Shown: positions 37,813 through 57,795, counted from the first letter of the stretch. The stretch: DNA of 64,000 bases from Minisyncoccota bacterium (GCA_022842645.1 JALHPE010000001.1:329462-393461), one strand, 5' to 3'. The notes: generated by a model not told the origin, from the sequence alone. Made by a program: numbers and translations.

Positions 37813-37834
37813 ATTAAGGGTATAGTAGCCCTGC

Positions 37835-38823: not shown

Positions 38824-38869
38824 TCCATAGGTTGCCTCTCATTTTCAGCTGTGGTACAGTGCCGCAACT

Positions 38870-39283: not shown

Positions 39284-39297
39284 TATTATCCCTGTGC

Positions 39298-39381
39298 GCG
39301 CAGGTGGCGAAATTGGTAGACGTACTACCTTGAGGTGGTAGCGCCCGCAAGGGCATGGAGGTTCGAGTCCTCTCCTGCGCA
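39298..39381 (+). tRNA. tRNA-Leu (anticodon GAG), long variable arm
   Basis: Acceptor GCGCAGG/CCTGCGC, anticodon stem CTACC/GGTAG with loop TTGAGGT, variable arm CGCCCGCAAGGGCAT, T-arm GGAGG-TTCGAGT-CCTCT, discriminator A. Confidence 0.85.
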
Positions 39382-39500
39382 CAAAAATTCAAAACCGAGG
39401 CATGCCTCGGTTTTGTTTATTTTTGCAGCGGGAGAGGACTCAGACTGCGAGCCGGGGTTGCACACACGTTTATCCGACGGGATCAAAATTATGTGTGACC
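39382..39500 (+). other. conserved tRNA 3'-trailer element (family member 4 of 4)
   Basis: Terminator-like hairpin CCGAGGCATGCCTCGG plus a T-run. GGAGAGGACTC is antisense to the tRNA-Leu T-arm GAGTCCTCTCC. Motifs GCGAGCCGGGGTTGC and AAATTATGTGTGACC. Confidence 0.45.
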
Positions 39501-39504
39501 ACCA

Positions 39505-40641: not shown

Positions 40642-40702
40642 TCTTACGTTTTCTCTCATATCCACAAAACGGTCATTAGCCGCACGGTGTATAATTTAAG
40701 CC

Positions 40703-41191
40703 ATGGTGTACGTAGTATGTGGTCATTGTGGAGTAGATTTTCGTGCGAAGCCATCTCATATTGCCCTGGGGTACGCGAAATTTTGCTCGAGAAAGTGCAG
40801 TTTTGAGAACATGCGAAACGGGGAATGGGTTGAGTGTGATGGATGTGGAACGAAAGTATATCGGAGCTTAAAGTCCATTAACGCATCTAAAAGTCATAAG
40901 TATTTTTGTAGCAAGTCATGTCAGACAAAGTGGAGAAATAACGATTTCAGTGGTAAGCGGCATGCAAATTGGCAACACGGACGCGGCTCATATAGGAATA
41001 TTATGAAAAGAGCCGGTGTAGAAGCTGTGTGTGATTTATGTCGCATAACTGATGAGAGGGTGCTGATTGTTCATCACAAAGATCAGGATAGGAAAAATAA
41101 TAGTATTAAAAATCTCGCGTGGCTTTGTCGGAATTGTCACTATCTTGCGCATCAATACGCGATTGGACGGGACCGGGGTCTGATTGTATAG
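40703..41191 (+). CDS. HNH endonuclease with N-terminal Cys4 zinc-ribbon motifs
   Basis: CGHCG…C…C and CDGCG…C…C pairs, then the HNH core LIVHHKDQDRKNNSIKNLAWLCRNCH (H-H…N…N…C…C-H). Confidence 0.7.
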   Translation: MVYVVCGHCGVDFRAKPSHIALGYAKFCSRKCSFENMRNGEWVECDGCGTKVYRSLKSINASKSHKYFCSKSCQTKWRNNDFSGKRHANWQHGRGSYRNIMKRAGVEAVCDLCRITDERVLIVHHKDQDRKNNSIKNLAWLCRNCHYLAHQYAIGRDRGLIV

Positions 41192-41201
41192 TCGTTTTGT
41201 T

Positions 41202-41276
41202 GGTGGACGTAGCTCAATTGGTAGAGCTCTGGTTTGTGGTACCAGCGGCTGTGGGTTCAAGTCCCATCGTTCACCC
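41202..41276 (+). tRNA. tRNA-His (anticodon GTG) with encoded G-1
   Basis: Extra 5' G (41202) opposite discriminator C. Acceptor GTGGACG/CGTTCAC, anticodon stem CTGGT/ACCAG with loop TTGTGGT, T-arm GTGGG-TTCAAGT-CCCAT. Confidence 0.85.
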
Positions 41277-43496: not shown

Positions 43497-43919
43497 ATGG
43501 CAAAAGAAATCACCAAAATCATCAAATTGCAGATTCAGGCGGGCGCGGCAACGCCAGCTCCTCCTGTGGGTACCGCGCTTGGTCCTGCGGGCGTAAACAT
43601 TGGCGAGTTCGTCAATCAATTCAACACGTTGACCCGCCCTATGATGGGGAACGTCGTCCCGGTCGTGCTCACCGTCTACAAAGACCGCTCGTTTACCTTC
43701 ATCGTCAAAAAGCCACCAGCATCGCGTCTTGTTTTGAAGAAGCTTGGTATTGAGAAGGGTTCCCAGAAGGCGCAGAACAAAGTTGCAAAGCTTACGAAGC
43801 AGCAGCTTACTGAAATTGCAGAGGAGAAGATGGAAGACTTGAATGCGTACGACGTAGAGCGGGCGAAGAAGATTATTGCCGGCACCGCACGCTCGATGGG
43901 GATTGATTCGGAAATCTAA
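43497..43919 (+). CDS. rplK: 50S ribosomal protein L11
   Basis: [43 protein letters not shown] is near-consensus L11. Internal ATG at 43497 of the longer track ORF. Confidence 0.9.
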
Positions 43920-43934
43920 AATTCATCACCCAAG

Positions 43935-43962
43935 AAAAAGGCTCCTTACGGAGCCTTTTTCT
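43935..43962 (+). terminator. intrinsic terminator after rplK (GGCTCC-TTAC-GGAGCC + TTTTTCT)
   Basis: Seen in sequence 16 nt after the rplK stop. Confidence 0.65.
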
Positions 43963-43989
43963 ATTGATGAAGCCGTGTACAATTCGCAC

Positions 43990-45657
43990 ATGCAGCAAAT
44001 TAAGGACGCCCTTGCCGAGGCTCTCAAGAAAGAGGGTATCTCCGGCATGGAAATTCCGCTTGAACACACGGCCGATTTTGGGCATGGCGATTATGCGTCG
44101 AGCGTTGCTTTGGTATATGCAAAACAATTAAACGTCAGTCCTCGTGAATTAGCGAAACGAATCTACCTCTCACTTCCCGAGCTCGAGAGCGTTTCCCAAA
44201 CGGATATTGCGGGACCGGGGTTTATCAATTTCACACTTTCTCCCAAATATCTCCATGCGTTTCTCGAAGAGGGGCGCAGGCACGGCTCACAATGGGGGAG
44301 TGGTGTTGTGCTTGAGGGCGAAGAAATCTTACTTGAATACACGAGCCCGAATCTTTTCAAGCCGCTCCACATCGGAAATCTTGTGGGGAACGTGATTGGC
44401 GAAAGTATCTCGCGGCTTTTTGAATTTGCGGGGGCAGATGTGCGTCGCATCAACTATCCCTCTGACATCGGACTCACCGTCGCAAAAGGCGTGTGGGGAC
44501 TCCAGAAAACAAGAGGCGACCCGAAAGATATTCGCGATCTTGGTGAGGCATATCGCGTGGGAAGTTCTGCGTATGAAGACGATTCTCTAGCAAAGGACGA
44601 CATTGATGCGATAAACAAAAAGCTTTATGAAGGTTCGGATGAAGAGCTTAATAAGATTCGCGAGGCGGGGAAGAAAACGTCGAAAAAACATCTTGATGAG
44701 CTTTGTCGCATGCTCGGCACAAAATTTGATGCAGAGATTTTTGAGAGCGAAGCGGGTCCCATTGGAAAAAAACTCGTAGAGGAACATCTGGGAGATGTGT
44801 TTGAAAAAAGTGATGGTGCGGTGGTTTTTCTTGGCGAAAAATATAGGCTTCACACTCGCGTCTTTTTGAACTCGATGGGACTTCCGACCTACGAGGCGAA
44901 AGATCTTGGGAACTTCGCCTTGAAGCACAAGGCGTATCCAGACTTCAAGCGCTCATATGTGGTGACAGGTGTGGAACAACAAGAGTATTTCAAAGTTATC
45001 ATTCAAGCGATAAAAAAAGTGTTTCCAGAGGAGGCACCAAAGGAATTGGGACATATTGCGACGGGATTCCTCTCGCTCACGACCGGCAAGATGTCATCTC
45101 GCAAGGGAAACGTGCTCACCGGGGAGGAGCTCCTCGACGACCTCCAGGCGGAAGCCAAGGTGCGTGCCGCGGAGAGTCGCTCGGAAGATGTGGATGCGCT
45201 TGCAGAAGATATTGCCGTTGCCGCACTCAAGTTCCAGATTTTGAAAGGTGGCGCGAGTAAAAACATCGTCTTTGACCGCGAGCGCGCACTCTCGCTTGAA
45301 GGGGATTCGGGACCATATCTCCAGTACACGCATGCGCGTACGCATGCCATCCTGGAAAAGGCAAAAGAGGCGGGTGTGCATGCTAAGCTCGACGAGCACG
45401 CTCCCGCAAGCGAGCTTGCGCGGCTCATCTTCCGCTTCTACGAGACCGTCCGGCGCTCACAAGAAGAACTGGAGCCGCACCACGTCGCAAACTACCTAAT
45501 ACAAGTCGCCGCGGCGTTTAACAGCTGGTACGCGCAGGAGCATATCCTCGACGGCACCGATACAGTCGCCCACAAAGTCGCTCTCACCGACATCACGCGT
45601 CTTACGCTCAAAAATGGACTCTGGCTCCTCGGTATTCCTGCGCCCGAGAAAGTGTAG
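43990..45657 (+). CDS. argS: arginyl-tRNA synthetase
   Basis: Class I motifs PNLFKPLHIGNLVGN (HIGH-like) and GKMSSRKGNV (KMSK). ArgRS N-terminal add-on domain. Internal start MQQIKDAL at 43990. Confidence 0.9.
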   Translation: MQQIKDALAEALKKEGISGMEIPLEHTADFGHGDYASSVALVYAKQLNVSPRELAKRIYLSLPELESVSQTDIAGPGFINFTLSPKYLHAFLEEGRRHGSQWGSGVVLEGEEILLEYTSPNLFKPLHIGNLVGNVIGESISRLFEFAGADVRRINYPSDIGLTVAKGVWGLQKTRGDPKDIRDLGEAYRVGSSAYEDDSLAKDDIDAINKKLYEGSDEELNKIREAGKKTSKKHLDELCRMLGTKFDAEIFESEAGPIGKKLVEEHLGDVFEKSDGAVVFLGEKYRLHTRVFLNSMGLPTYEAKDLGNFALKHKAYPDFKRSYVVTGVEQQEYFKVIIQAIKKVFPEEAPKELGHIATGFLSLTTGKMSSRKGNVLTGEELLDDLQAEAKVRAAESRSEDVDALAEDIAVAALKFQILKGGASKNIVFDRERALSLEGDSGPYLQYTHARTHAILEKAKEAGVHAKLDEHAPASELARLIFRFYETVRRSQEELEPHHVANYLIQVAAAFNSWYAQEHILDGTDTVAHKVALTDITRLTLKNGLWLLGIPAPEKV

Positions 45658-45660
45658 ATT

Positions 45661-46599
45661 ATGGCAAATCAGGCAGAAATTGAAGATCATTACGACACCA
45701 TCGGCACGTTGCACGCACTCCGCCTCAAAGATGTTCATGACGGTTTTCCTGATTATACGTGTGCATTCTTTGATGGTGATTTTACAAAGACCCTGAAGCA
45801 GGCTCAAGAAAATAAACACGAGTGGATTTTTAATGGACTCGGACTCGGGCAGGATCTCAAGGGGAAACGAATTCTTGATATTGGTTGTGGGTGGGGTCCT
45901 ATACTTAATGCCGTGAGAAAACGGGGAGGAGAGGCGGTAGGTCTTACGCTTTCCCCCGGACAAGTTGCATATTGTGTCGAACAGGGGCTTGATGTGCGTC
46001 TGCTTGATTACAAAGCAATTCAAAAGGGCGAGCTCGGGGAATTTGATGCTGTTATATCGATCGGCGCTTTCGAACATTTTTGTTCCCCCGAAGAATGTAT
46101 GCGCGGAGAACGGGAGTCAATATATACACGTTTTTTTGAGTGTTGTTCCGAATTGCTAAAGTGCAAGAGTCGATTATATCTACAGACTATGACGTGGGGT
46201 AAAGCTGATCCGGACTATACGAAACTGTCTTTAAATGCACCACCTAATTCCCAAGAAGCAATCCTTGCACGCCTTGTGAAGTTTTATCCAGGCTCGTGGT
46301 TGCCATCGGGACTTTCTCAAATTAAGGAAACATCAAAAACCAACTTTGACTTTATTAGTTCGAGCAATGGACGCCTCGATTATATAGAGACACTCCAACG
46401 ATGGGGCGAATCGACAAGATATCTATTCAAACCATCAGTTTTCCCACAGGCGTTTGTTGCCGGGCTCCGTCTTCTTTTGAGCGCGGCGGTAGATCCTGAT
46501 ACCCGGGTGCAGCTCATCTCTATGTATTACGCTGATCAAACAGAGTGTTTTAAGCGAGAGATCATGAGTCATGAACGAATGTTCTTTCAAAAGAAGTAA
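45661..46599 (+). CDS. class I SAM-dependent methyltransferase, cyclopropane-fatty-acyl-phospholipid-synthase-like
   Basis: SAM motif I ILDIGCGWGPI, motif post-I LTLSPGQ, and CFA-synthase-like C-terminal region. Confidence 0.7.
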   Translation: MANQAEIEDHYDTIGTLHALRLKDVHDGFPDYTCAFFDGDFTKTLKQAQENKHEWIFNGLGLGQDLKGKRILDIGCGWGPILNAVRKRGGEAVGLTLSPGQVAYCVEQGLDVRLLDYKAIQKGELGEFDAVISIGAFEHFCSPEECMRGERESIYTRFFECCSELLKCKSRLYLQTMTWGKADPDYTKLSLNAPPNSQEAILARLVKFYPGSWLPSGLSQIKETSKTNFDFISSSNGRLDYIETLQRWGESTRYLFKPSVFPQAFVAGLRLLLSAAVDPDTRVQLISMYYADQTECFKREIMSHERMFFQKK

Positions 46600-46623
46600 A
46601 TAGGAATTTGTTACACTGGCTCG

Positions 46624-48219
46624 ATGACCCAGGAAGAAGCGCTCTCAATTCTCAAACTTGGCGTGAATGTGTTTCTCACGGGAGAGCCCGGAAGCGGGAA
46701 GACACATACCATCAATCGCTATGTTGAGTGGCTTCGCGAGCGCGGGGTTGAGCCGGCAGTGACGGCTTCGACGGGGATTGCGGCGACACACGTGGGTGGG
46801 ATGACGATTCACTCGTGGAGCGGGATTGGGGTGAAGAAGCGTTTGAATGATTGGGACATTGAACAAATTGCCTCGCGCGAGAAGACGGCGCGGCGGATTA
46901 TTGAGGCGAAGGTTTTGATACTCGATGAGGTTTCTATGTTGGACGCGGAAACTTTGGAGAGTGTGGATCGCGTGCTCCGCACACTTCGTCAGCCGGTGTT
47001 GAGTGAGAGTCGTCCTTTTGGTGGGCTCCAGGTGGTGTTTGTGGGTGACTTTTTTCAACTTCCGCCGGTTTCCCGTGGTGAGCCATCTCGATTTGCGTTC
47101 GCCTCAGAGGCATGGAAAGAGGCGAACCCGGTTGTGTGCTATCTCTCAGAACAACATCGTCAGGATGATGGTGCGTTTCTCGATCTCTTGGGGGCAGTGC
47201 GACGTGGAGAAGTGCAAGAGCGGCATCATGAAATTTTGCGCGGGCGTATGAAGGGCGAGCGAAAAGTGAAAGCGACGAAACTTCAGACACATAACGCGAA
47301 AGCAGATGCCCTTAACGATGAGTCTCTCGCTAAGGTGGAGGGCAAATCTCATGTCTTTCATATGACGACGCGCGGCGCTCGTACGCTTGTGGAGGCCTTG
47401 AAGCAGAATTGTCTTTCACCCGAAACTCTGACTTTGAAAATCGGCGCGTCGGTTATGTTTACCCGCAACAACTTTGAGGAAGGATACGTGAACGGCACCT
47501 TGGGGGAGGTGGTTGATTTTGCGGTGAACGGCTCGCCTATTGTGAAGACGCGCGGAGGAATGCGCATCGAAGTGGGCTTAGGTGAGTGGAGCATTGTGGA
47601 CGGCGCGAAAATTTTGGCGCAGATAAAGCAAGTGCCCCTGCGTCTTGCGTGGGCGATTACGATTCATAAAAGCCAGGGTATGTCCTTGGACGCGGCGGTC
47701 ATTGATCTCTCGCATGCGTTCGAATTCGGGCAGGGGTATGTGGCGCTCTCGCGCGTGCGCACGCTTGAAGGGCTTTTTCTCGAAGGATTCAATGAGCGCG
47801 CGCTTCTGCTTCACCCGGAAGTGGCGCGGCAAGACGAGGTCTTTCGCGCAAAGTCCGAAGCGGCACGAAAGCGTATTGCGACGATTCCAGAAGGCGAGCG
47901 CGAGACTTTGGAGAAGAATTTTTTGCGCGCCATCGGCGCCCGCGAACCAAAAAAGATTGAAAAGAAGGAATTCGCTGAAGGCGTCAAAGGAGTCGGCGGC
48001 ACGGGCAAACTCGCGGCTATTCGCGAAAAATTCCCCAACGCTGGGCGTGCGTGGACAAAAGATGATGACGACCAGCTCACCGAGATGTTCGGGGCAGATA
48101 CGCCCATGAAAATAATGGCAAAAGAATTCGGTCGCAAAAGCGGGGCGATAACAGCCCGCCTCGCAAAGCTGGGGCTCATTGAGGATGACTATTGGGCGCG
48201 GAAGAATAAGCAAACTTAG
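46624..48219 (+). CDS. PIF1/RecD-family 5'-3' DNA helicase with a C-terminal extension
   Basis: Walker A FLTGEPGSGKTHTI, motif II LILDEVSM, motif III VFVGDFFQLPPV, and motif V ITIHKSQGMSLD. The C-terminal ~130 aa (…AWTKDDDDQLTEMFGADTPMKIMAKEFGRKSGAITARLAKLGLI) resemble a helix-turn-helix module. Confidence 0.7.
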   Translation: MTQEEALSILKLGVNVFLTGEPGSGKTHTINRYVEWLRERGVEPAVTASTGIAATHVGGMTIHSWSGIGVKKRLNDWDIEQIASREKTARRIIEAKVLILDEVSMLDAETLESVDRVLRTLRQPVLSESRPFGGLQVVFVGDFFQLPPVSRGEPSRFAFASEAWKEANPVVCYLSEQHRQDDGAFLDLLGAVRRGEVQERHHEILRGRMKGERKVKATKLQTHNAKADALNDESLAKVEGKSHVFHMTTRGARTLVEALKQNCLSPETLTLKIGASVMFTRNNFEEGYVNGTLGEVVDFAVNGSPIVKTRGGMRIEVGLGEWSIVDGAKILAQIKQVPLRLAWAITIHKSQGMSLDAAVIDLSHAFEFGQGYVALSRVRTLEGLFLEGFNERALLLHPEVARQDEVFRAKSEAARKRIATIPEGERETLEKNFLRAIGAREPKKIEKKEFAEGVKGVGGTGKLAAIREKFPNAGRAWTKDDDDQLTEMFGADTPMKIMAKEFGRKSGAITARLAKLGLIEDDYWARKNKQT

Positions 48220-48230
48220 TTTGCTATATT

Positions 48231-48752
48231 TTGTCTATGACCGACGAGGGAAGTGTGTCTCCTGAGAATACTGTAGTGCCCGAGTCACCGACGGCAGAGG
48301 TGGTGCTCGCGCCCGAAGTCGAGAGTGTTTCTACGTCCGAGTCGCAAGCGGTAGAGCCCGTGCAATCCGAGCCTGTGTCAGAGGTTGCGGTTGAACCATC
48401 TTCGCCCGTCGCTCAACCTACACCAACATCAGAATCGCCTGCGCCTGAAATCCCTCCTGAGTCGCCAAAGTCAGTGCCGGTTCCTCCTCCTGTGCCGACC
48501 CAGGCACCATCAAGAACACTGAGAGCGTCATCAAAGAATCGCATGCTCGAAGTCGTGCGTGCGCGGAAAGCCGAGCGGCTCGAAAAGATAGTCGTGCTCG
48601 CGCGGGAGAAGCAGGTTATCAGAAATGATGATGTCGAGAAGCTTTTGAAAGTCACCGACACGACGGTGACAAACTATCTAAACGCTCTTGTGCTTTCAGC
48701 TCGCCTGCGCCGTTCAGGGCACGGACGAGCTGCCACATACGAGCCTGTTTGA
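48231..48752 (+). CDS. hypothetical protein: Pro/Ser/Glu-rich N-terminal half and a C-terminal winged-helix-like domain
   Basis: Low-complexity PVxSEP repeats, then …VVLAREKQVIRNDDVEKLLKVTDTTVTNYLNALV…. Confidence 0.4.
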   Translation: MSMTDEGSVSPENTVVPESPTAEVVLAPEVESVSTSESQAVEPVQSEPVSEVAVEPSSPVAQPTPTSESPAPEIPPESPKSVPVPPPVPTQAPSRTLRASSKNRMLEVVRARKAERLEKIVVLAREKQVIRNDDVEKLLKVTDTTVTNYLNALVLSARLRRSGHGRAATYEPV

Positions 48753-48845
48753 GTCGGATCGGCAAAAATAGCGCTATTTTTGCCGATAGCCATTTAGGGC
48801 AAAAAGAATCCGGCCAACACTTTTCAAAGAGTTGGCCGGCTGTAG

Positions 48846-49178
48846 CTACCACCGGGGTGGCACGTTGGAAATAACGGGTTTTGCATTGTGCGGCACGCGA
48901 CCAGTTTTCAGTGCTTCTTCGCCGGCGGGTGTCATGAGGAAACACATTCCGAAGATACTAAGCCCGTCCGGGCGTCTGATGAGACCCTTACTTTCGAGAA
49001 AGTTATACTGATCTTCAATCGTGGCTTCGCTAATGTCTATACGACGCTGTCGTGCATGTCGCCAGAGCTTGTAGGGAATGCTGTCTGGGTGTTGCTGTAC
49101 AAGTCGGAGAACGGTCATGCTTATCTCCGACAACTTTTGCACCCTGCGCTTCTTCCCATTTTTCTTCGCTTCAGGCAT
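48846..49178 (-). CDS. small basic hypothetical protein, possible winged-helix DNA-binding protein
   Basis: …ISMTVLRLVQQHPDSIPYKLWRHARQRRIDISEATIEDQYNFLESKGLIRR… Convergent with the previous gene. A shared bidirectional terminator (perfect 30-nt palindrome ATCGGCAAAAATAGCGCTATTTTTGCCGAT plus a CCGGCCAAC hairpin) lies at 48758-48840. Confidence 0.35.
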   Translation of the reverse strand: MPEAKKNGKKRRVQKLSEISMTVLRLVQQHPDSIPYKLWRHARQRRIDISEATIEDQYNFLESKGLIRRPDGLSIFGMCFLMTPAGEEALKTGRVPHNAKPVISNVPPRW

Positions 49179-49256
49179 TACACAATACTCCTCTCTGCCT
49201 CAACTAGGATGGTTATAGGTGATTTTGCTTCGAATAGCAACTGAGTCTCGCGCAGA

Positions 49257-52200
49257 GTGAGCGACTTTGCTACGATACGCATCATGGCTGAAAATCAGGG
49301 GAAATCGGATGCCGCTCAGCGGGAAGAGGAGATACTCGAATTCTGGCGGGAGAATAAGACGTTTGAGCGCTCGCTTGAAAAGCACGCCCCAAAGGGCGAG
49401 TTTGTGTTTTATGACGGCCCGCCGTTTGCGACAGGGCTTCCGCACCACGGCTCGCTTCTTTCTTCGATCATCAAAGACGTGATTCCGCGCTACAAGACGA
49501 TGCGCGGCTACAGAGTGCGCCGCCGGTGGGGATGGGATACGCACGGACTTCCTATTGAGAACCTTGTTGAGAAGGAGTTGGGGCTCAAGACCAAGAAAGA
49601 GATTCTCGATATTGGTATCGCGAAGTTCAACGAAACTGCACGCGGCATGGTTTTGAAATACGTGCACGATTGGAAACACTACATCGAGCGCGTCGGACGT
49701 TGGGTGGACTACGAGAATTCCTACAAGACGATGGACAACTCCTACATCGAGAGCGTGTGGTGGGCGCTGAAGCGCATTCATGAGAAAGGACTTCTTTATG
49801 AAGGGCGGAAAGTGCTCATGTACTGCACACACTGCGAAACGCCTCTCGCAAAAGCAGAAATCGCGGCGGACAATACGTATAAAGATGTTACTGAAGAGGC
49901 GGTAACGGTGAAGTTTGAGATTGTAGATCAGCCGAAGACCTACTTTCTCGCGTGGACAACAACGCCGTGGACGTTACCGGGGAACGTTGCGCTCGCCGTT
50001 GGAGCGGAGATCGACTATGTGAAAGCGAGTGTCGGGGATATCACGTATATCCTTGCTAAAGAGCGCGTGAGCACCGTCTTGAAGGATGTTACGCACGTCA
50101 TCGTCGGCACTATGCGGGGGAGTGACCTTGTCGGGAAACGCTACGCGCCGGTTGTTTCAGTTTCTGCACTTACCTCTGAAAGCTCGCATCGCGTGCAGAC
50201 GGCGGATTTTGTTACAACAGAAGATGGCACCGGCATCGTGCACATTGCGCCGATGTATGGCGAGGACGACTACCAACTCGGCGTGCGCGAGAAGCTCCCC
50301 ATGGTGCAGCTCCTTAATCCGAACGGAACATATAACGATGCCGCGCCCGAGCTTATCCGCGGCAAATACCTAAAAGAGGGAGCAAAAGACATTAAGCGCG
50401 ATTTGGAATCGCGCGGACTTCTCTTTGCGCGCGAGAACCATACACACTCATATCCGCATTGCTGGCGTTGTGGCACTCCACTTATCTACAACGCCGTTTC
50501 TTCGTGGTTCATCAATATTCAGGACGTAAAGCAGAAGATCATTTCCGAAAACCAGAAGATTAACTGGGTGCCGGAGCACTTGAAAAATGGGCGTTTTGGA
50601 AAGATTCTCGAGAGCGCCCCCGATTGGACGATCTCACGTAACCGTTTCTGGGCGTCCCCGCTTCCATTCTGGAAGTCTAAAGAGGGGAAGGTGATGGTGG
50701 TTGGCTCACTTGCGGAACTGAAAGAAAAGATGAAAAAGAGCGGGAACACCTATTTCACGATGCGACATGGTGAGGCCGAGACAAATGTGCAAGGGATTTT
50801 GAATTGTGACCCCGATGCACCATATGCGCTGACTCAACTTGGGCGCACAGGCGTGCTCGAAGCGGCGCGTGCATTCAAGGATGCTGGGCATCATGTCGAC
50901 CTTGTGGTGGCATCGCCCTTTGTGCGGACGAAAGAATCTGTCGCGATCTTCGCAGAGGTACTTGGACTCTCAGAAGAGCAGATTCGATACGAGCCCCGGC
51001 TGGGGGAATATAACTTTGGGGTACTCAATGGGGCTTCTGTCTTGGCGTGGCATGAAAAGTTTGCACCGAGCGTCGATAGATTTAATCAGGGTCCTCAGGG
51101 AGGAGAAAATGATGCACAAGTGCGGGCGCGAATGCTCGCGGTTGTGCAAGAGCTAGAACGCACCGAAAAAGGAAAAACTATTTTAATCGTATCGCATGGC
51201 ACACCGCTCTGGCTTCTTCAGGCAACGGTTAATGGGCTTTCGCGGGAAGACATTGCACAACGCTTTGTGCGCGAATATCCAAATAATGCAGCCGTACAAC
51301 CGTTGAGATACGTTCCACTTCCCTTAAACCATGATAACGAGTTGGATCTCCATCGGCCCTACATTGATGACATCGTGCTTCTTGATGAAGACGGCACCGA
51401 ATATCACCGCATTCCGGAGGTTGTTGACTGTTGGGTGGAGAGCGGCTCTATGCCGTTTGCGGAGTATCACTATCCGTTTGAAAATAAGGACGAATTTGAA
51501 AAGCGCGCGCCCGGCGACTTTATCGCCGAATATATCGCACAGACGCGCACGTGGTTTTACTACATGCATGCGCTCGGAGTCGTGCTCTTCGACAGAATCG
51601 CGTTTAAGAATGTGGTGACGACAGGCACCATCGTTGCCGCAGATGGCGAGAAAATTTCGAAATCGAAGAAAAATTATACTGACCCGCTTGAACTCATTGA
51701 GCGCTACGGCGCAGATGCGGTGCGCCTCTATCTCATGGGCTCTCCCGTGATGCAGGCTGAGGATTTGCGTTTCCGCGACGACGACGTGCGCGAGGCGCAT
51801 AACCGCACGATTGGGATTCTCTGGAACAGTTTCAAATTCTTCGATCTCTATCAGAAAGACTTCGACGGAAGTGCCGTGGCACGTAAGAGTGCGCACGTCT
51901 TGGATCGTTGGATTCTCGCGCTTCTTGATCAGACGACGACCGAAATCAGTGAGGCGTTTGATGCCTACGACACCCCGCGCGCGTGCCGTGCGGTGCGCGC
52001 ATTTGTAGACGAATATTCAACGTGGTACGTGCGCAGAAGTCGTGAGCGCGTGAAGAGCGAGTGGCACGATCGGCAGTTTGCGCTCGCAACACAGCAAGAA
52101 GTGTTGCTCACATTCTCAAAGCTCATTGCGCCCGTGATGCCGTTTCTCGCTGAGGGTATCTATCGCGGCATTGCGGATGGAGGAAGCGTGCACCTGGAAA

Positions 52201-52709
52201 GCTGGCCCGAGGTGCAGAAGGGATTCTTCGCACGCCTCTTTGGGGCAAAGGACACCGTCCTTGAAGACATGAAAGAAGTGCGCGCAACCGTGACGAAAGC
52301 ACTTGAGGCGCGTGACAGAGCAGGAATGAAAGTGCGCCAGCCGCTCACCAAGCTTGAGATTGGTTCACATATCTCAAAAGAATTGCGCGAGATTATTCGC
52401 GATGAAGTGAATGTGAAGGAGGTTACCATTGCCTCAGATCTAAAAGCGGGTGAAGTGCGGCTCGACACCATGATTACACCAGAACTTGCGCGCGAAGGTT
52501 TGGTGCGCGAGATTATTCGCATGGGGCAGGATGAGCGCAAGAAAGCTGGGTGCGCTCCAGGAGACCATCTTGCACACGTACTCGTTGGGGGATCTGATGA
52601 GGTGCTGAGTGCTGTGCGCGAGCATGTGCTTGCAATTCAGGAGGCGCTCAAGACGGAGCGCGTTGAGGCCCAAGCGGGAGAGGTGCTCCATGTCGTAATC
52701 AGAAGGTAG
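49257..52709 (+). CDS. ileS: isoleucyl-tRNA synthetase (type 2-like) carrying an inserted histidine-phosphatase (PGAM-like) domain
   Basis: HIGH-region PPFATGLPHHGS. Editing domain TTPWTLPGNVALAV. IleRS-specific DWTISRNRFWASPLPFW. KMSKS as GEKISKSKKN. Between the W-x-x-S-R-x-R-x-W block and the …DCWVESGS block sits an extra domain of about 190 aa with RHG (FTMRHGEAETN) and SHG (ILIVSHGTPLW) histidine-phosphatase signatures. Confidence 0.9.
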   Translation: MSDFATIRIMAENQGKSDAAQREEEILEFWRENKTFERSLEKHAPKGEFVFYDGPPFATGLPHHGSLLSSIIKDVIPRYKTMRGYRVRRRWGWDTHGLPIENLVEKELGLKTKKEILDIGIAKFNETARGMVLKYVHDWKHYIERVGRWVDYENSYKTMDNSYIESVWWALKRIHEKGLLYEGRKVLMYCTHCETPLAKAEIAADNTYKDVTEEAVTVKFEIVDQPKTYFLAWTTTPWTLPGNVALAVGAEIDYVKASVGDITYILAKERVSTVLKDVTHVIVGTMRGSDLVGKRYAPVVSVSALTSESSHRVQTADFVTTEDGTGIVHIAPMYGEDDYQLGVREKLPMVQLLNPNGTYNDAAPELIRGKYLKEGAKDIKRDLESRGLLFARENHTHSYPHCWRCGTPLIYNAVSSWFINIQDVKQKIISENQKINWVPEHLKNGRFGKILESAPDWTISRNRFWASPLPFWKSKEGKVMVVGSLAELKEKMKKSGNTYFTMRHGEAETNVQGILNCDPDAPYALTQLGRTGVLEAARAFKDAGHHVDLVVASPFVRTKESVAIFAEVLGLSEEQIRYEPRLGEYNFGVLNGASVLAWHEKFAPSVDRFNQGPQGGENDAQVRARMLAVVQELERTEKGKTILIVSHGTPLWLLQATVNGLSREDIAQRFVREYPNNAAVQPLRYVPLPLNHDNELDLHRPYIDDIVLLDEDGTEYHRIPEVVDCWVESGSMPFAEYHYPFENKDEFEKRAPGDFIAEYIAQTRTWFYYMHALGVVLFDRIAFKNVVTTGTIVAADGEKISKSKKNYTDPLELIERYGADAVRLYLMGSPVMQAEDLRFRDDDVREAHNRTIGILWNSFKFFDLYQKDFDGSAVARKSAHVLDRWILALLDQTTTEISEAFDAYDTPRACRAVRAFVDEYSTWYVRRSRERVKSEWHDRQFALATQQEVLLTFSKLIAPVMPFLAEGIYRGIADGGSVHLESWPEVQKGFFARLFGAKDTVLEDMKEVRATVTKALEARDRAGMKVRQPLTKLEIGSHISKELREIIRDEVNVKEVTIASDLKAGEVRLDTMITPELAREGLVREIIRMGQDERKKAGCAPGDHLAHVLVGGSDEVLSAVREHVLAIQEALKTERVEAQAGEVLHVVIRR

Positions 52710-52710
52710 C

Positions 52711-53283
52711 ATGTACCAGAAATATCACACTGATGCACTAGTACTTCGCTCCTACGAGCACGGCGAGGCGGATCGCGTGTTCACACTTCTTACAGAAGAT
52801 TTTGGCTTGGTGCGTGCGCGCGCGAGTGCTGTGCGGCGAGAAAATTCGCGTATGCGTTATGCGCTGCAAGTGGGCGCACGTGCACGTCTCTCTCTGATTC
52901 GCGGAAGTCGGGGGTGGCGCATTGCGGGCGCAGAAGCGAAAGATCGTATTTCCCCCGAGAACGTGAGCGGACTCGGTGTGTTTGCGCGGCTCTCGGCGTT
53001 ACTCGAGCGCTTGGTGCAGGGCGAGGACACGAATCCCTACCTCTTTTCGTCTTGTGCCGAAGCACATGCGGCGTGCGCCACGCTCTCGCGCGAACATCAT
53101 CACCTGATTGAGCTTCTTGCGGTTGCGCGCGTACTCTACGCACTTGGCTATCTTTCTGAAGAGGCACTTGGTTCTGCAGCGGTTTCCACCGCGTACGAAA
53201 GCGCGTCACTTCAGGTGGTTGCAGAGTCGGGGCGAGAGCTTCTGTCTTCAGTTAACAAAGCGCTTCAAGCGACGCAGTTATAA
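52711..53283 (+). CDS. recO: DNA repair protein RecO (short form)
   Basis: N-terminal OB-fold pattern DALVLRSYEHGEADRVFTLLTEDFGLVRARA…G…RYAL. Confidence 0.75.
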   Translation: MYQKYHTDALVLRSYEHGEADRVFTLLTEDFGLVRARASAVRRENSRMRYALQVGARARLSLIRGSRGWRIAGAEAKDRISPENVSGLGVFARLSALLERLVQGEDTNPYLFSSCAEAHAACATLSREHHHLIELLAVARVLYALGYLSEEALGSAAVSTAYESASLQVVAESGRELLSSVNKALQATQL

Positions 53284-53308
53284 TCTCGCTGCGTGGTAAA
53301 ATGAGAGG

Positions 53309-55282
53309 ATGGCGGGAAGGGACCAGAGAGAGCGCAACGAAAACGAAGAACGTATTCGACAGCTACGCGAAGCGATGTATTCGCGCAAACTTGAGCCTCT
53401 CATAAAAGAAAAACCGCGGCGCGAGCTTGAGCTTACGCGTCCGCCCGTGGGTGAAGAGTTTTTGCACGAGGAGCGCGGTGTTCAAAGTGGGGTTGTTGCG
53501 CCAAGCCGCGTGCGTTTTATGCGAGCGCTCATCAACTGGACGCTCGCTGCAGGCGTCGCATTTTTTGTCGGCGCAGCAGGATTCTTTGGGTACTATTTTT
53601 TCATTGGCGGCGGCTCGAGCACCGTCTCGCCGGGGAATATTGATATCTCCGTGTCAGGTCCGCTCCAAGTTTCAAGTGGTTCACCAACCGAGCTCCAGGT
53701 TGCAGTGGTAAATAGAAATCGCACACCACTTGAGCGCGCGGATCTGGTCATCAAATATCCAGACGGCACGCGCTCACCCGTCGATCTCTCAACGGCACTT
53801 AAAGATCAACGCATTCCCCTCGGAAATATTGAACCCGGTGGGCGTCGGCAGGGAACTGTTTCCGCTGTGTTTGCGGGTGTTGAGGGCGACCGTGGTGCGA
53901 TTGTTATAGAACTCGAGTATCGCCTGGAGAACTCGAGCGCAATTTTTGTTGCCTCAACGAACTACCAGATCGTATTTGCTTCTTCGCCACTTTCTTTAAG
54001 TGTTACTGCAAATAACGAAACAGTCTCGGGGCAGCCTGTCGAGTTCAAAATTAATATCGCATCAAACGCGGAATCGGCAGTCAAGGATGCGCTCCTCTCG
54101 ATTGCAACACCGTTTGGATTCTCAATGGAATACGCTGATCCGACGCCGCAAAAAACCAAAGAAGGAAACCTGTGGGTTTTGGGAGATATTCCGCCGGGCG
54201 GAAGAAAAGAAATCACGGTGCGTGGGGCGCTCTCGGGCGAGCAAGGTGATGAGCGCGTCTTTCGCTTTACTGCCGGAACACGCTCGGATCCGAAGGCAAC
54301 AGCCGTGAGCGCGACACTTGCCGATTATGCACACCGCATTACCGTATCGCGTCCGTTCTTGGGGCTTGATGTGACACTTAACAAACCTATTGTTGGGGGG
54401 AGTGCGGTTGTTTCTCCGGGTGAGACGGTCAATGTGGCGATTGCGTATGAGAACAACCTTTCGACCGAAGTGAACGATGCGGTGATTGTGGCGCGACTCT
54501 CTGGCATTGGCATTGATGGCTCGACAGTACAATCGACCGACGGTTTCTACCGCTCAACAGACAAGACGATACTTTGGGACAAAACAACAACACGTGGCGC
54601 GCTCGCCCGGCTTCCTGCTGGAGCAAAAGGCACGTTGAATTTTTCGTTCCAGATGCCTCAGAGCGATGCGCTCGCAAGCGAGCAGAATCCTAAGCTCTCA
54701 CTGAGTGTGCACGCGGCGGGGAGACGCATTTCTGAGAATAATGTGCCAGAAACACTGCAATCGACTGCGACGCAAGACATTCGTCTTGCAAGCGACGTGC
54801 AGCTCATTGCACAGGGCCTTTATTATGCAAATCCATTTGGTTCAACTGGTCCGTTACCACCAAAGGCAGAGCAAGAGACAACCTATGCGTTGGTCTTTAG
54901 CATCACCAACACCACCAATCGTATTAAAGATGCAGAAATGCGCGCGATACTCCCGCCCTATGTGCGCTGGGTAGGAATTTACAGTCCTTCCAACGAGAAA
55001 ATTGTCTTCAATCAAGCCGACAGCTCTGTCACGTGGAAGGTGGGAGCCGTCGAGCCTGGCGTGGGAGTTGATGGTGCTTCGCCGAAGCAAGCAGCAATTG
55101 CGATTGGGTTCACGCCTTCCACCTCACAGATTGGCCAGCAACCGGTTCTTATTCGTGATGTGCGGCTCACGGGGACAGACGAGGCAACGGGAGCCCCGAT
55201 AACGCGAACTTCAGATGATGTGACAACCAACATTCAGGGTGATCCTGGTTTTAGCCCCAACAGCGCAAACGTCGTGCGCTAG
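53309..55282 (+). CDS. large membrane-anchored surface protein (657 aa) with repeated beta-sandwich-like modules
   Basis: Charged N-terminus, TM LAAGVAFFVGAAGFFGYYFFI, then about 500 aa of beta-rich sequence with recurring V-x-V-x-N and GTV/GTL patterns. No catalytic motifs. Confidence 0.45.
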   Translation: MAGRDQRERNENEERIRQLREAMYSRKLEPLIKEKPRRELELTRPPVGEEFLHEERGVQSGVVAPSRVRFMRALINWTLAAGVAFFVGAAGFFGYYFFIGGGSSTVSPGNIDISVSGPLQVSSGSPTELQVAVVNRNRTPLERADLVIKYPDGTRSPVDLSTALKDQRIPLGNIEPGGRRQGTVSAVFAGVEGDRGAIVIELEYRLENSSAIFVASTNYQIVFASSPLSLSVTANNETVSGQPVEFKINIASNAESAVKDALLSIATPFGFSMEYADPTPQKTKEGNLWVLGDIPPGGRKEITVRGALSGEQGDERVFRFTAGTRSDPKATAVSATLADYAHRITVSRPFLGLDVTLNKPIVGGSAVVSPGETVNVAIAYENNLSTEVNDAVIVARLSGIGIDGSTVQSTDGFYRSTDKTILWDKTTTRGALARLPAGAKGTLNFSFQMPQSDALASEQNPKLSLSVHAAGRRISENNVPETLQSTATQDIRLASDVQLIAQGLYYANPFGSTGPLPPKAEQETTYALVFSITNTTNRIKDAEMRAILPPYVRWVGIYSPSNEKIVFNQADSSVTWKVGAVEPGVGVDGASPKQAAIAIGFTPSTSQIGQQPVLIRDVRLTGTDEATGAPITRTSDDVTTNIQGDPGFSPNSANVVR

Positions 55283-55316
55283 CAAATTAAGGCTAAATGC
55301 GCTATACAGAGCCGAT

Positions 55317-56708
55317 ATGACCGAAGTTACGATGGAGAAAATAGTGTCGCTCTGTAAGCGTCGCGGATTCGTATTTCAGGGCTCTGAGATTTATGGCGGC
55401 CTGGCGGGCACGTGGGATTACGGCCATCTCGGTCTCGAGCTCAAGAAGAACATTGAACGCCTTTGGTGGCGTCAGTTTGTGAGCGGGCGCGAGGATATGT
55501 ATGGCGTTGATTCGGCGATCCTCATGAATTCGCGCGTGTGGGAGGCTTCGGGACACGTTGGTGGGTTCAATGACCCTCTCGTCGAGGATAAAAAAACAAA
55601 AAAGAGATATCGTGCCGACCATCTACTCGAGGAGGTGGGTATTGACCCGACCGGCATGACGCTCGCGCAGATGGGGCAGGCTATCGCTGAGAAGAAGATC
55701 ATGAGCCCAGATGGCAATCCGCTCTCTGAGCCGCAGCAGTTCAACATGATGTTCAAGACATCGACCGGCTCTGTTGATGGTGCCGACATTCCTGTCTACC
55801 TCCGTCCGGAAACGGCGCAAGGCATGTTCGTGAATTTCAAGAATACACTTGATGCGTATCACCCGAAGCTCCCGTTTGGCATCGGGCAGATTGGGCGCGC
55901 ATTCCGCAATGAGATCGCCCCGCGCGATTTCATCTTTCGCGTACGCGAGCTCGAGATCATGGAGCTCGAATATTTCGTCAAAGAGGCTGAATGGGAGAAT
56001 GCCTTTGACCACTGGCTCGGAGAGATGCGTGCGTGGTTCGCTTCACTCGGTTTCGCGTCGGAGGATATTAAGGAGGTGGAAATTCCTGATGGCGAGCGCG
56101 CACACTATTCGAAACGCACCGTCGATTTCCACTTCAAGTATCCGCACAAGTTCGACGAGATCGGCGGCCTTGCGTATCGAACTGATTTCGATCTGAAGAA
56201 CCATATCGAGCACTCCGGCGTCGATCTCTCGTATCTTGATCAGGAAAGCAACACGAAACTGGTGCCTCACGTGATCGAGCCAACCTTCGGTCTTGGGCGG
56301 CATGTGATGGCTGTCCTAGCAAAGGCCTACACTGAAGACGACCTTGGAGGTGGTGAGCGCGTGTACCTCAAGTTGCCGAAGCATCTCGCGCCCGTCCGCG
56401 CGGCGGTCTTCCCGCTCCTCAAAAATAAGCCCGAGCTCGTTGCAAAGGCGCGCGAAGTCTACATGGCTCTGAAAAAAGAATCCGCCAACTGGCGGACCGG
56501 AAACATCATGTGGGACGACAACGGAAACGTGGGGAAGCGCTACCGCCGCCAAGACGAGATCGGCACGCCACACACCATCACGATCGATTTCGACACTCTC
56601 GGCGAGAGTGGGGAGGAGAAGAAAGACACCGTCACCGTACGCGACCGCGATACGGGGGAGCAGACGCGAATGAAAATCTCTGAACTCGGCGTTTTTCTTA
56701 GTGAATAG
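55317..56708 (+). CDS. glyQS: glycyl-tRNA synthetase (dimeric alpha2, archaeal/eukaryote-like type)
   Basis: RRGFVFQGSEIYGGLAGTWDYGHLGLELKKNI, class II motif 2/3 (FRNEIAPRDFIFRVRE), and an anticodon-binding C-terminal domain. Confidence 0.9.
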   Translation: MTEVTMEKIVSLCKRRGFVFQGSEIYGGLAGTWDYGHLGLELKKNIERLWWRQFVSGREDMYGVDSAILMNSRVWEASGHVGGFNDPLVEDKKTKKRYRADHLLEEVGIDPTGMTLAQMGQAIAEKKIMSPDGNPLSEPQQFNMMFKTSTGSVDGADIPVYLRPETAQGMFVNFKNTLDAYHPKLPFGIGQIGRAFRNEIAPRDFIFRVRELEIMELEYFVKEAEWENAFDHWLGEMRAWFASLGFASEDIKEVEIPDGERAHYSKRTVDFHFKYPHKFDEIGGLAYRTDFDLKNHIEHSGVDLSYLDQESNTKLVPHVIEPTFGLGRHVMAVLAKAYTEDDLGGGERVYLKLPKHLAPVRAAVFPLLKNKPELVAKAREVYMALKKESANWRTGNIMWDDNGNVGKRYRRQDEIGTPHTITIDFDTLGESGEEKKDTVTVRDRDTGEQTRMKISELGVFLSE

Positions 56709-56726
56709 GGGTGGTATCATGACCCC

Positions 56727-57785
56727 ATGAAAGAAGGGTTCACCATCTCCATCACAACTGGCACCATTCTAAAAACCGCCCTTATCGGGATCGGGCTGTT
56801 TCTTCTCTATTATCTGCGTGAAATCGTACTCGTCGTTCTTACGGCAGTCGTGATTTCCTCTGCGTGCGAGCCGGCGGTGCGCCTATTTATGCGAGCGAAA
56901 ATTCCGCGCCTCATCGCCGTCATCATTCTGTATGTCATTCTCTTCACCTTCCTCTTCGGGATGTTCTACTTCTTCCTCCCCACGGTTCTCAATGATATTA
57001 AAGGGTTTATCGCATCTCTTCCTGCCTATCTTGAGGCGGTAAGTCTCCTCGTAGCTCTTGAGGACTTTGGTTTTCTCTTTGGACTCCCTCCCGAGGCAAC
57101 CTCCAGCGATGTGATCGCCCAGATCAATCAGAATTTAAATCTCGCGAATGTATTTGGAAACTCATTTAGCGCCGCCGCAACTGTGCTCGGAAGCGTTTTC
57201 TCACTCATCCTCATCCTCGTATTCTCGTTTTATTTCACTGTTGCAGAAACCGGTGTCGACGATTTCCTCCGTGTCATTGCGCCGAATAAATATAAACCCT
57301 ATCTCTTAAATCTTTGGTTCCGCGCACGCCATAAAATTGGTCTTTGGATGCAGGGACAGGTGCTTTTGGGGGTGATTGTGGGCGTACTCGTCTATCTTTC
57401 GCTCACCATCATCGGCGTGAAGCACGCACTCCTTTTGGCAGTTTTGGCGGCAGTTCTCGAACTCATTCCTGTCTTCGGTCCGACTATTTCCGCGGTACCT
57501 GCGGTTTTGATTGCGTTCGCTGACGGCGGGGCTACTCTCGGACTCATCGTGATCGCGCTCTATGTAATTATCCAGCAATTTGAAAACCATCTGATTTACC
57601 CATTGGTCGTAACAAAAGTGGTGGGCGTCCCGCCACTTCTTGTGATTCTCGGACTTATCGTGGGGTGGAATGTAGCCGGATTTTTAGGCATCTTGCTTTC
57701 CGTTCCCGTTTCGGCGGCACTCCAGGAATTTGTAAGCGATTGGAGTCGGGGCAAGATATTTGTGAAAGAGGGCGCGGAGGCGTAG
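56727..57785 (+). CDS. AI-2E family transporter (PerM/YdiK-like, UPF0118)
   Basis: 8-TM protein with the …GLWMQGQVLLGVIVGVLVYLSLTIIGV…LELIPVFGPTISAVPAVLIAF… family pattern. Confidence 0.8.
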   Translation: MKEGFTISITTGTILKTALIGIGLFLLYYLREIVLVVLTAVVISSACEPAVRLFMRAKIPRLIAVIILYVILFTFLFGMFYFFLPTVLNDIKGFIASLPAYLEAVSLLVALEDFGFLFGLPPEATSSDVIAQINQNLNLANVFGNSFSAAATVLGSVFSLILILVFSFYFTVAETGVDDFLRVIAPNKYKPYLLNLWFRARHKIGLWMQGQVLLGVIVGVLVYLSLTIIGVKHALLLAVLAAVLELIPVFGPTISAVPAVLIAFADGGATLGLIVIALYVIIQQFENHLIYPLVVTKVVGVPPLLVILGLIVGWNVAGFLGILLSVPVSAALQEFVSDWSRGKIFVKEGAEA

Positions 57786-57795
57786 GGTACTCACT

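Follow-up and report, generated by a model that had tools for sequence, protein, structure and literature searches.

A predicted histidine phosphatase nested in the CP3 subdomain of a type-2 isoleucyl-tRNA synthetase as a candidate accessory phosphohydrolase

What would a phosphatase domain be doing inside an aminoacyl-tRNA synthetase? Bacterial synthetases rarely have extra catalytic domains besides their editing domains, and the question is raised by the isoleucyl-tRNA synthetase (IleRS) gene of a Minisyncoccota bacterium (GCA_022842645.1), which we analysed within a stretch of 64,000 nucleotides (JALHPE010000001.1:329462-393461; hereafter the window, counted from its first letter). The gene, ileS (49257..52709), is an open reading frame (ORF) of 1150 residues when read from a GTG and encodes a type-2 IleRS with a nested histidine phosphatase (HP); ileS, the features mapped within it and the neighbouring argS and recO-like genes all lie on the + strand. 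An initial annotation, made from the sequence alone, had described a PGAM-like HP domain inserted in frame into this single ORF. The in-frame domain stood up to profile searches, conservation analysis and structure prediction, and its relatives proved to occur either within IleRS, as a separate gene upstream of ileS, or at further sites in IleRS and valyl-tRNA synthetase (ValRS). These three ties to the two synthetases (a coupled upstream gene, a nested insertion and repeated independent insertions) provide strong genomic evidence for a phosphate-removal step in Ile/Val charging. The reading that we favour, with a probability of roughly 0.45, is that the HP module is a synthetase-dedicated accessory phosphohydrolase.

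Comparison with an insert-less IleRS delimits the inserted module to residues 494-696 (~203 residues; 50736..51344), so that the extent first proposed (50745-51326, ~190 residues) falls inside the insertion but is shorter than it. The bounds were set against the insert-less relative at L087, which reads ...CIGSKERLKIKDLHRP... (L### names denote genome or metagenome loci and P#### names cluster representatives); where the window protein has ~211 residues, the IleRS2 of PDB entry 8c8v has ~16. The module lies between GSLAELKEKMK and DLHRPYID and consists of an N-terminal linker (KSGN), a His_Phos_1 domain and a C-terminal linker (...VPLPLNHDNEL). The Pfam search that had been proposed as a check gave a strong match to His_Phos_1 (PF00300; residues 502-671, E=1e-30, 107 bits against a gathering score of 21.7), and the segment 50745-51326 by itself reached E=3e-32 and 112 bits. 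The phosphate-binding Arg and the nucleophilic His are provided by R503-H504-G505 (50763..50771), within FTMRHGEAETN, while conservation marks R557 as the second phosphate-binding Arg (SPFVRTKES; 50925..50927), E584 as the presumed general acid (LGEYNFG; 51006..51008) and H647 as the second catalytic His (IVSHG, within ILIVSHGTPLWLL; 51195..51197).

In the 69 full-length orthologues used for conservation counts, whose ORFs were picked by BLAST-guided selection, R503, H504, G505, R557 and H647 are present without exception (69/69). E584 is Glu in 68 and Asp in one, an Asp that is also found at the equivalent position of the L087-type free-standing phosphatases, and N510 is kept in 66. When inserted and free-standing forms are taken together, RHG is found in 151 of 152 sequences and R557 and H647 in all 152. 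Pairwise identity across the orthologues is 37% for the phosphatase domain versus 50-58% in the Rossmann and editing parts, and insert length is tightly held (median 209 residues, range 174-217). Judged by these sequence comparisons, the phosphatase active site is under strong purifying selection and the inserted enzyme is apparently catalytically competent.

The AlphaFold2 model of the insert alone was confident (predicted local distance difference test, pLDDT, 92.7; predicted template modelling score, pTM, 0.89), and a Foldseek search with it returned 303 PDB matches at E<=1e-3, the 50 best of which are all His_Phos enzymes. Its nearest folds are small-molecule phosphomonoesterases of ~200 residues (template modelling score, TM, ~0.72; 20-26% identity), namely mycobacterial GpgP-type hydrolases, the Hydrogenobacter phosphoserine phosphatase (iPSP), PhoE, Rv3214, a riboflavin-pathway phosphatase and CobC; the ~250-residue dPGM mutases superpose on the insert with a higher root-mean-square deviation than these. 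The dPGM profile models also scored far under their cutoffs (dPGM_arch, 56.6 against 225; PRK01295, 43.8 against 316; pgm_1, 26.9 against 81.7), as did the model for CobC alpha-ribazole phosphatase (TIGR03162, 55 bits against 162.9). Profile scores and predicted fold thus place the insert as a PhoE/CobC-type phosphomonoesterase rather than a PGAM mutase, and the label "PGAM-like" holds for the histidine-phosphatase superfamily but not for the mutases within it.

Is the host itself an ordinary synthetase? The window protein scores 844.2 bits against the NCBIfam ileS equivalog TIGR00392 (cutoff 621.4), whereas the valS, leuS and metG models all remain under cutoff. Pfam splits tRNA-synt_1 around His_Phos_1 (residues 26-496 and a later stretch) and adds Anticodon_1 (PF08264; the anticodon-binding domain, residues 883-1031, 51903..52349), followed by DUF5915 (PF19302; residues 1067-1139), which corresponds to the type-2 C-terminal region; the zinc-binding C-terminus of IleRS1 was not detected in the window protein by Pfam. 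The best solved relative is the IleRS2 of Priestia megaterium (PDB 8c8v/8c8u) with 703 bits, against ~300 bits for IleRS1 structures, and the full-length AlphaFold2 model (pLDDT 90.2, pTM 0.84; insert and both linkers pLDDT 88-97) gives TM values of 0.77-0.86 to IleRS2 structures versus 0.72-0.78 to IleRS1. Because residues 1-13 are disordered in this model, the true start of ileS is probably not the GTG but the ATG at 49284 (Met10).

The catalytic and editing motifs can be read directly. The CP1 editing domain spans approximately residues 206-400 (49872..50456, by motif reading) and contains WTTTPWT (residues 233-239; 49953-49976) and GTGIVH (residues 324-329; 50226-50246). Across 119 IleRS (86 insert-bearing and 33 free-HP-associated), WTTTPWT, GTGxVH and D338 hardly vary (the exceptions are single substitutions at T239 and H329), which rules out the idea that the phosphatase compensates for a lost editing domain. 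The KMSKS-type loop reads KISKS (residues 799-803; 51651..51665), in which K799, S801 and K802 are conserved in 69/69 full-length orthologues. The class-I signature motif, identified from the sequence and the family alignment, is a non-canonical HHGS (residues 63-66; 49443..49454): compared with HXGH, the first His and the Gly are kept and the fourth-position His is replaced by Ser. The initial annotation had called the HIGH motif, editing domain and KMSKS motif all intact; this is right for the reading frame, the editing motifs and KISKS, but not for HIGH. Among the 86 insert-bearing IleRS the motif is G/A-x-H-H in 54 and H-x-G-[HS] in 32, the fourth-position Ser occurring in nine, the window protein among them. 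G/AXHH is a documented signature variant of IleRS2 that has been tied to mupirocin hyper-resistance, while the HHGS-type Ser variant is not among the motif variants described in the same work (PMC10485003).

Motif and profile evidence together identify the window enzyme as a complete type-2 IleRS with intact editing motifs. It resembles the IleRS2 of P. megaterium (8C8V/8C8U) and Thermus thermophilus (1ILE) in whole-protein homology, DUF5915, CP1 motifs and KMSKS-type loop, and its family also has G/AXHH members, as described for IleRS2; it differs from them in its ~203 extra residues, which form an enzyme domain in CP3, in the HHGS motif and in the loss of the Cys residues of a zinc knuckle.

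That knuckle marks the site of insertion. The connective polypeptide (CP) of IleRS is divided into a CP core, CP1 (editing), CP2 and CP3; CP3, which has a zinc motif in T. thermophilus, extends over residues 459-526 of the yeast enzyme and 473-534 of the Candida enzyme (PMC7191050, PMC7955072), and the CP2-CP3 linker ARDWNVSRNRYWG lines the reveromycin/tRNA-A76 pocket of the yeast enzyme (PMC7955072). In the window protein the homologous linker is WTISRNRFWASPLPFW (residues 457-472; 50625..50672), and the insert begins ~20 residues past it, between the two halves of the former zinc knuckle. The second half of CP3 then leads back into the Rossmann fold (DLHRPYID...DCWVESGS; 51345..51449, DCWVESGS being residues 724-731). 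All the motifs quoted in the initial annotation, WTISRNRFWASPLPFW, FTMRHGEAETN, ILIVSHGTPLWLL with H647 and DCWVESGS, are thus present in the protein. The four knuckle Cys that flank the insert are all kept in 21 of the 69 insert-bearing IleRS and lost in 47, including the window, where the lost positions fall at 50673-50702 and 51369-51392; they are kept in all eight insert-less neighbour IleRS whose junctions were read, and the insert-less ileS of the L087 type has its Cys4 knuckle intact and just ~8 residues where the module would enter. By alignment, then, the insert lies outside the core strands, nested in CP3, a subdomain at the periphery that borders the active site at both of its ends; it is inside the synthetase, as first proposed, but the "catalytic core" is better described as the zinc-knuckle position of CP3. 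In the Rossmann topology, CP2, CP3 and the loop after the DxWFxSG strand emerge, like CP1, on the substrate-binding edge of the sheet, and modules placed there would therefore decorate the rim of the synthetic-site crater.

Could so unusual an architecture be an artefact of assembly, or a selfish insert? A protein search with the insert and its flanks gave only proteins of <=526 residues, 13 of them with both PF00133 and PF00300 and all of them fragments (those with a named source are labelled Patescibacteria or Magasanikbacteria), and ileS is in pieces on some long contigs. Full-length evidence comes from genome and metagenome loci and from a search of cluster representatives. In a scan of one genome per species, at least 80 loci span the IleRS-phosphatase junction. 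Their titles are mostly Patescibacteria or Candidate Phyla Radiation (CPR), with several unclassified bacteria and two labelled Gammaproteobacteria; the CPR lineages named are Paceibacterota, Nomura-, Zambryski-, Jorgensen- and Liptonbacteria, with many labelled Saccharibacteria, and one locus is the closed 995-kb chromosome CP060229.1. In 68 of the 80, a single uninterrupted ORF aligns end to end with the window protein at 38-58% identity. The insertion, which the initial annotation had asked to be compared with relatives, is lineage-specific but widespread.

A chimeric assembly can thus be excluded without raw reads, because the fusion recurs in at least 80 species-level genomes that include a closed chromosome. 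The contigs with broken genes are low-coverage, error-prone assemblies in which neighbours such as argS and SHMT are also broken, and GC content is flat across the insert in the window gene. P0014, a candidate free-standing homologue, turned out to be a piece of a frameshifted fusion. An intein was rejected as well: the Pfam output for the window protein holds no intein/HINT family, and the junctions (...KKSGN|TYF... and ...NHDNEL|DLHRP...) have neither Cys/Ser at the N-side nor HN-Cys/Ser/Thr at the C-side. The chance that the fusion stems from chimeric assembly, from two genes joined by a frameshift or from a mobile element of the intein kind is therefore negligible, the independent assemblies having already refuted it, and the claim that this is a true fusion stands. 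Five proteins of 745-758 residues (P0043, P0047, P0077, P0086 and P0100) are C-terminal portions of IleRS that all start ~80 residues before the phosphatase; this shared start could mean that ileS is split in some lineages, or that gene calling went wrong in the same way each time.

If the fusion is real, where does the domain come from? Free-standing relatives of the insert have 186-193 residues and ~30% identity to it. At L087-L089, the HP gene lies between argS and an insert-less ileS of 895 codons, overlaps the ileS start by 4 nt, and is followed after ileS by recO; at L085 and L086 a few genes separate the HP from ileS. A metagenome scan led by the free-standing form gave 80 loci, which were classified by tblastn and reading frame: the HP is a separate ORF immediately upstream of ileS in 50, lies upstream across a gap of 1.1-1.9 kb that contains another gene in four, and is inside CP3 as a single ORF in 22, while four loci are without ileS, three of them ending <220 bp from the phosphatase. 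The HP subfamily is thus tied to ileS in 76 of the 77 assessable loci, a figure that describes this subfamily and not all His_Phos proteins, since the scan was seeded with a subfamily-specific peptide pattern. From the HP stop to the ileS start the median distance is 2 nt, 43 of 47 pairs lie within 30 nt and 20 overlap, and the free-standing HP is probably translationally coupled to ileS. No N-terminal HP-IleRS fusion was found in the 80 metagenome loci, despite a gene that abuts the ileS start.

No fused locus has a second HP copy near ileS, and a hidden Markov model (HMM) of the HP subfamily run on the 64-kb window finds one copy only, the one inside ileS; the free and inserted forms are for this reason recognized as mutually exclusive alternatives. 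The order argS...ileS-recO is common to the fused loci, L002, L084, L087 and the window. Upstream of ileS we found no T-box or other leader, and promoter and terminator scans were at chance. Several variations on the free-standing form were also seen. Two HP genes stand in tandem upstream of ileS at L151:5016-6110 and L160:4418-5528, and P0121 and P0142 are each a single ~400-residue protein with two His_Phos domains. Between HP and ileS at L085:6659-9739 and L086:3368-6457 lie a reverse-transcriptase gene (RVT_1) and genes for two paralogous proteins of 253 and 300 residues that have a long conserved C-terminal half in common; a similar protein comes after the phosphatase in L091.

The CP3 insertion is not the only one of its kind. 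When 1.84 billion cluster representatives were searched exhaustively with only the insert as query, 478 proteins came back at E<=1e-10; judged by length and match position, the best 150 of these look like IleRS with an HP at about residue 485-560, truncated pieces or free forms of ~190-220 residues. Architectures were checked for 18 of these 150: every long host is an IleRS or a ValRS, and two of the proteins are free-standing with two HPs in tandem. The insertion sites seen in IleRS are CP3, the interior of the second CP3 hairpin, a position after SGSMPYA and a position before the anticodon domain, with one to three copies per enzyme. In P0056 (1419 residues) CP3 is uninterrupted and HPs follow DCWFESGSMPYAS and precede the anticodon-domain helix LDRWLL; its cluster has six members of identical length, on contigs up to 1.06 Mb. 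One IleRS on a 1.06-Mb contig (L172; ENA ERZ25074184) carries HPs at sites 2 and 3 without argS/recO synteny, and the organism may lie outside the window's lineage; its ileS region contains genes for DAHP synthase, PurA, pyruvate:ferredoxin oxidoreductase and an SLH-domain protein. Of the three HPs in P0128, one lies within the second CP3 hairpin and the other two match the sites used in P0056. P0112 (JGI, 1066 residues) has three in-frame passengers: a His_Phos in CP3, a GNAT after SGSMPYA and, in the editing-domain region, a segment like REP-associated tyrosine transposases (81 bits against a cutoff of 80); as this protein comes from a single contig, a gene-calling or assembly artefact is possible. 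One CP3-type fragment, P0179, is labelled Candidatus Methylomirabilis.

ValRS is the second host. Three independent ValRS carry one to four HPs, placed in the CP2 region ahead of WCISRQ and immediately behind GHRIPVWY: P0028 (valS 411 bits versus ileS 199) has four and is encoded on contigs (L173/L174) at 2x coverage, the protein at L175:4369-8188 combines an HP with the ValRS-specific C-terminal domain, and in P0296 the HP directly follows GHRIPVWYCLSC, the CP3-equivalent site. A further set of apparently split genes is accounted for by UGA recoding. An identically "split" ileS of the P0198 type occurs in 15 contigs and becomes one ORF of 1608 residues when UGA is read as sense; at L176:3721-8547 (also L177 and L178) ileS has five in-frame TGA codons, and we regard this lineage as UGA-recoded because both ileS and groEL heal under code 25. 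In its IleRS (~1600 residues), the WTTTPWT strand of CP1 is immediately preceded by an inserted Nudix domain whose Nudix box is perfect (Pfam E=1.5e-14), and the same protein has three His_Phos domains, located at CP3, downstream of SGSMPF and ahead of the anticodon domain.

How often the CP3 site was entered is less easily read. Junction linkers of the CP3-type fused genes are homologous and of equal length across all groups, including that of L166, yet the fused IleRS core of L166 is 66-69% identical to enzymes of the free-HP lineage and 49% to other fused ones. It belongs with L094, L095 and L139 to an IleRS lineage in which ...GNPWLDAG replaces D-x-W-F-D/E-S-G and which mostly has a free-standing HP. 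This pattern in the sequences suggests a second insertion or a transfer of the CP3 cassette in L166, and HP identities of 37-48% cannot separate capture in place from such a transfer; in unbootstrapped neighbour-joining trees of the HP domain and the IleRS core, fused and free forms interleave.

What might the phosphatase do for the synthetase? The inserted module is the in-cis form of the protein encoded upstream of ileS in sister Patescibacteria, and if the accessory-hydrolase reading is correct, both would serve IleRS as a dedicated hydrolase, by analogy with the CP1 editing domain and its trans-editing relatives. Placed on the substrate-binding rim of the Rossmann fold, the HP could act on a ligand of the nucleotide type, bound at the synthetic site or emerging from it, and strip its terminal phosphate. 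Three observations speak for a function over mere neighbourhood: fusions at the N-terminus were not found, even though a gap of only 2 nt would make them the simplest accident, the second host is ValRS, the closest paralogue of IleRS, and all long hosts checked are one or the other. The placement of the insertions appears to be under selection, and the Nudix partner and the small-molecule-phosphatase fold point to a substrate of the ribose-phosphate type. The leading candidate would be a 2'/3'-phosphate or pyrophosphate on A76 of the bound tRNA, whose removal would restore a chargeable 3'-OH, followed by adenine-nucleotide by-products. As a precedent, toxSAS toxins pyrophosphorylate tRNA CCA ends and hydrolases restore charging (10.1101/2021.04.30.441581; PMC11559606; PMC11782079), a phosphohydrolase making 3'-pyrophosphorylated tRNA competent for aminoacylation again (10.1101/2021.04.30.441581; PMC11559606). 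Taken by itself, this tRNA-end version is speculative and on balance fairly unlikely. The same low odds go to its extension, in which the HP modules, with the Nudix in one lineage, would be cis/trans "end-repair" domains of Ile/Val synthetases that strip toxin-type A76 blocks from bound tRNA; were it true, charging of tRNAIle and tRNAVal would resist tRNA-targeting toxins, and synthetases would have a second, chemically different form of proofreading.

Several points weigh against a dedicated role. No toxSAS-type toxin was seen in the loci examined, and these organisms are not known to have a toxin directed at the 3' ends of tRNAIle or tRNAVal. None of the characterised equivalogs fits the insert (the CobC, dPGM, SixA and PspA models all stay under the NCBIfam cutoff), distinctive specificity residues beyond the generic His_Phos set were not found in the insert family, and the inserted domains are mostly acidic (median isoelectric point, pI, 5.8), from which RNA binding gains no support. 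The linkage to ileS belongs to the one subfamily that the scan was built to find, and the conserved adjacency may partly reflect general argS-ileS-recO synteny. A contrast in charge, with basic free-standing and acidic inserted HPs hinting at an RNA substrate, was considered and dropped: the free-standing set is bimodal, and a GC-matched low-GC bin shows no difference.

A plainer explanation is that an unrelated housekeeping phosphatase of broad specificity, co-transcribed with ileS, was copied into permissive loops, and that the separate gene disappeared once the copy in the fusion had taken its place; the catalytic residues would then be kept because the cell needs the phosphatase and not for the sake of IleRS (a neutral or constructive fusion). 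A gene that abuts ileS makes recombination into it mechanistically easy, these ileS tolerate other passengers (GNAT and the REP-tyrosine-transposase-like segment in P0112, Nudix in L176), the fold is closest to generic small-molecule phosphatases, and argS and recO are conserved neighbours though functionally unrelated to ileS. Against this, fusion by simple loss of the stop codon was never seen in the 80 loci while internal insertions occupy at least four loops, the lineage of L172 has insertions without any argS/recO synteny, ValRS serves as a second host, the long hosts among the 18 proteins checked are all IleRS or ValRS, and the dosage of an unrelated enzyme hardly accounts for multiple copies per synthetase. 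We consider the explanation unlikely, if one that carries real weight. Somewhat less probable is that the HP clears or senses a small molecule, by hydrolysing a nucleotide product or by-product of adenylation (AMP, terminal phosphates of the PPi type, or what Nudix enzymes release from ApnA/ADP-ribose-type compounds) or, having bound a phosphometabolite, by tuning IleRS allosterically through CP3. Its nearest folds are small-molecule phosphatases, among them the nucleotide-like CobC and the broad-specificity PhoE; the Nudix co-insertion fits a two-step nucleotide degradation; the flanks of CP3 are active-site elements whose two ends border the Ile and A76 pockets; and it is IleRS and ValRS, of all synthetases, whose editing cycles consume ATP heavily. 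Yet AMP and PPi are made by all 20 synthetases, which leaves the restriction to IleRS and ValRS unaccounted for, PPi hydrolysis is to our knowledge not an activity of branch-1 histidine phosphatases, and the free-standing forms cannot work allosterically via CP3.

The phosphate to be removed might instead sit on the synthetase itself. HipA-like toxin kinases phosphorylate the KMSKS-loop serine of GltX and TrpS, and a protein phosphatase that reverses such an inhibitory mark would make the synthetase self-immune or reversibly regulated. Some enzymes of the His_Phos fold are indeed protein phosphatases (SixA, PGAM5, Sts; PMC5501728), the variable copy number and insertion site resemble an arms race, and the family's G/AXHH motif, linked to inhibitor resistance, suggests an IleRS under attack. 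Small-molecule phosphatases, however, rank first in the fold search, with none of SixA, PGAM5 and Sts among the best 50 of the 303 matches; the SixA model TIGR00249 gives 31 bits against a cutoff of 74.5 and covers only the N-terminal 74 residues; no kinase was seen in the conserved neighbourhood; and a Nudix partner makes little sense with a phosphoprotein substrate. This role for the domain is improbable.

Set beside known systems, the dedicated-hydrolase reading finds a parallel in CP1, a hydrolase inserted in the Rossmann fold that acts on the bound tRNA 3' end and whose relatives, AlaX and YbaK/ProX, are free-standing. The distribution of the module between cis (fused) and trans (separate) forms is the same; the fold is unrelated, the chemistry would be phosphomonoester rather than aminoacyl-ester hydrolysis on a tRNA that is only a presumed substrate, and the canonical editing domain is still present alongside the HP in the window IleRS. 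With PhoE (1H2E), CobC, GpgP Rv2419c (4QIH), 6S2Q and the Hydrogenobacter phosphoserine phosphatase (4IJ6), the insert shares fold, catalytic set (RHG...R...E...H), size (~200 residues) and small cap, but it is no equivalog of any of them and resides within a class Ia synthetase or shares an operon with one. NF040702 (isoleucine--tRNA ligase, N-acetyltransferase domain-containing) sets a precedent for enzyme domains inside IleRS, though its passenger is a different one and the window protein is no member (344 bits against 1999); P0112 joins both kinds, His_Phos and GNAT, in one IleRS. The best NCBIfam model for the insert is that of the Rv2228c-type RNase H/acid phosphatase (PRK07238; 70 bits against a cutoff of 326), in which a CobC-like His_Phos is fused to a nucleic-acid enzyme, there as a terminal fusion to another partner and here nested. 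Small alarmone hydrolases are alike only under the tRNA-end proposal, as phosphohydrolases that restore a chargeable 3'-OH; they are free-standing antitoxins of the HD-domain RSH fold without a link to synthetases, unlike the His_Phos module.

A link of IleRS or ValRS to a histidine phosphatase was not found in the searchable full-text literature; neither a 2026 survey of IleRS domain evolution nor a paper on CPR synthetase fusions mentions an HP-bearing IleRS, and database names are generic ("class I tRNA ligase family protein", "histidine phosphatase family protein", "isoleucyl-tRNA synthetase"). Both enzymes are familiar, and enzyme passengers in IleRS have a precedent; what is unreported is that the two are obligately paired, that the phosphatase is nested in CP3 and in other loops, and that this has recurred. 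The bacteria concerned make up a very large and uncultured section of the bacterial tree. Should the HP act on tRNA 3' ends, the arrangement would represent a new kind of tRNA quality control or counter-defence; should it act on a nucleotide, the arrangement would point to a metabolic coupling that only these reduced genomes have. The proteins are small and soluble-looking and can be tested directly in vitro, and CP3 and the two further loops offer permissive sites for the engineering of class Ia synthetases.

In the window itself, ileS is followed directly by the recO-like gene (52711..53283; PF11967 RecO_N), and the conserved upstream neighbour argS (43876..45657, by Pfam) is ~3.6 kb away. 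The interval contains a CMAS-like methyltransferase, a PIF1-family helicase and two ORFs without assigned function, the methyltransferase and helicase occupying the position where relatives carry the free-standing phosphatase gene. Four synthetase genes lie within 16 kb (43876-59250): argS, ileS, a class-II aminoacyl-tRNA synthetase gene (55239-56708) and metG (57796-59250). Upstream of this cluster are seven tRNA genes (24903-41276).

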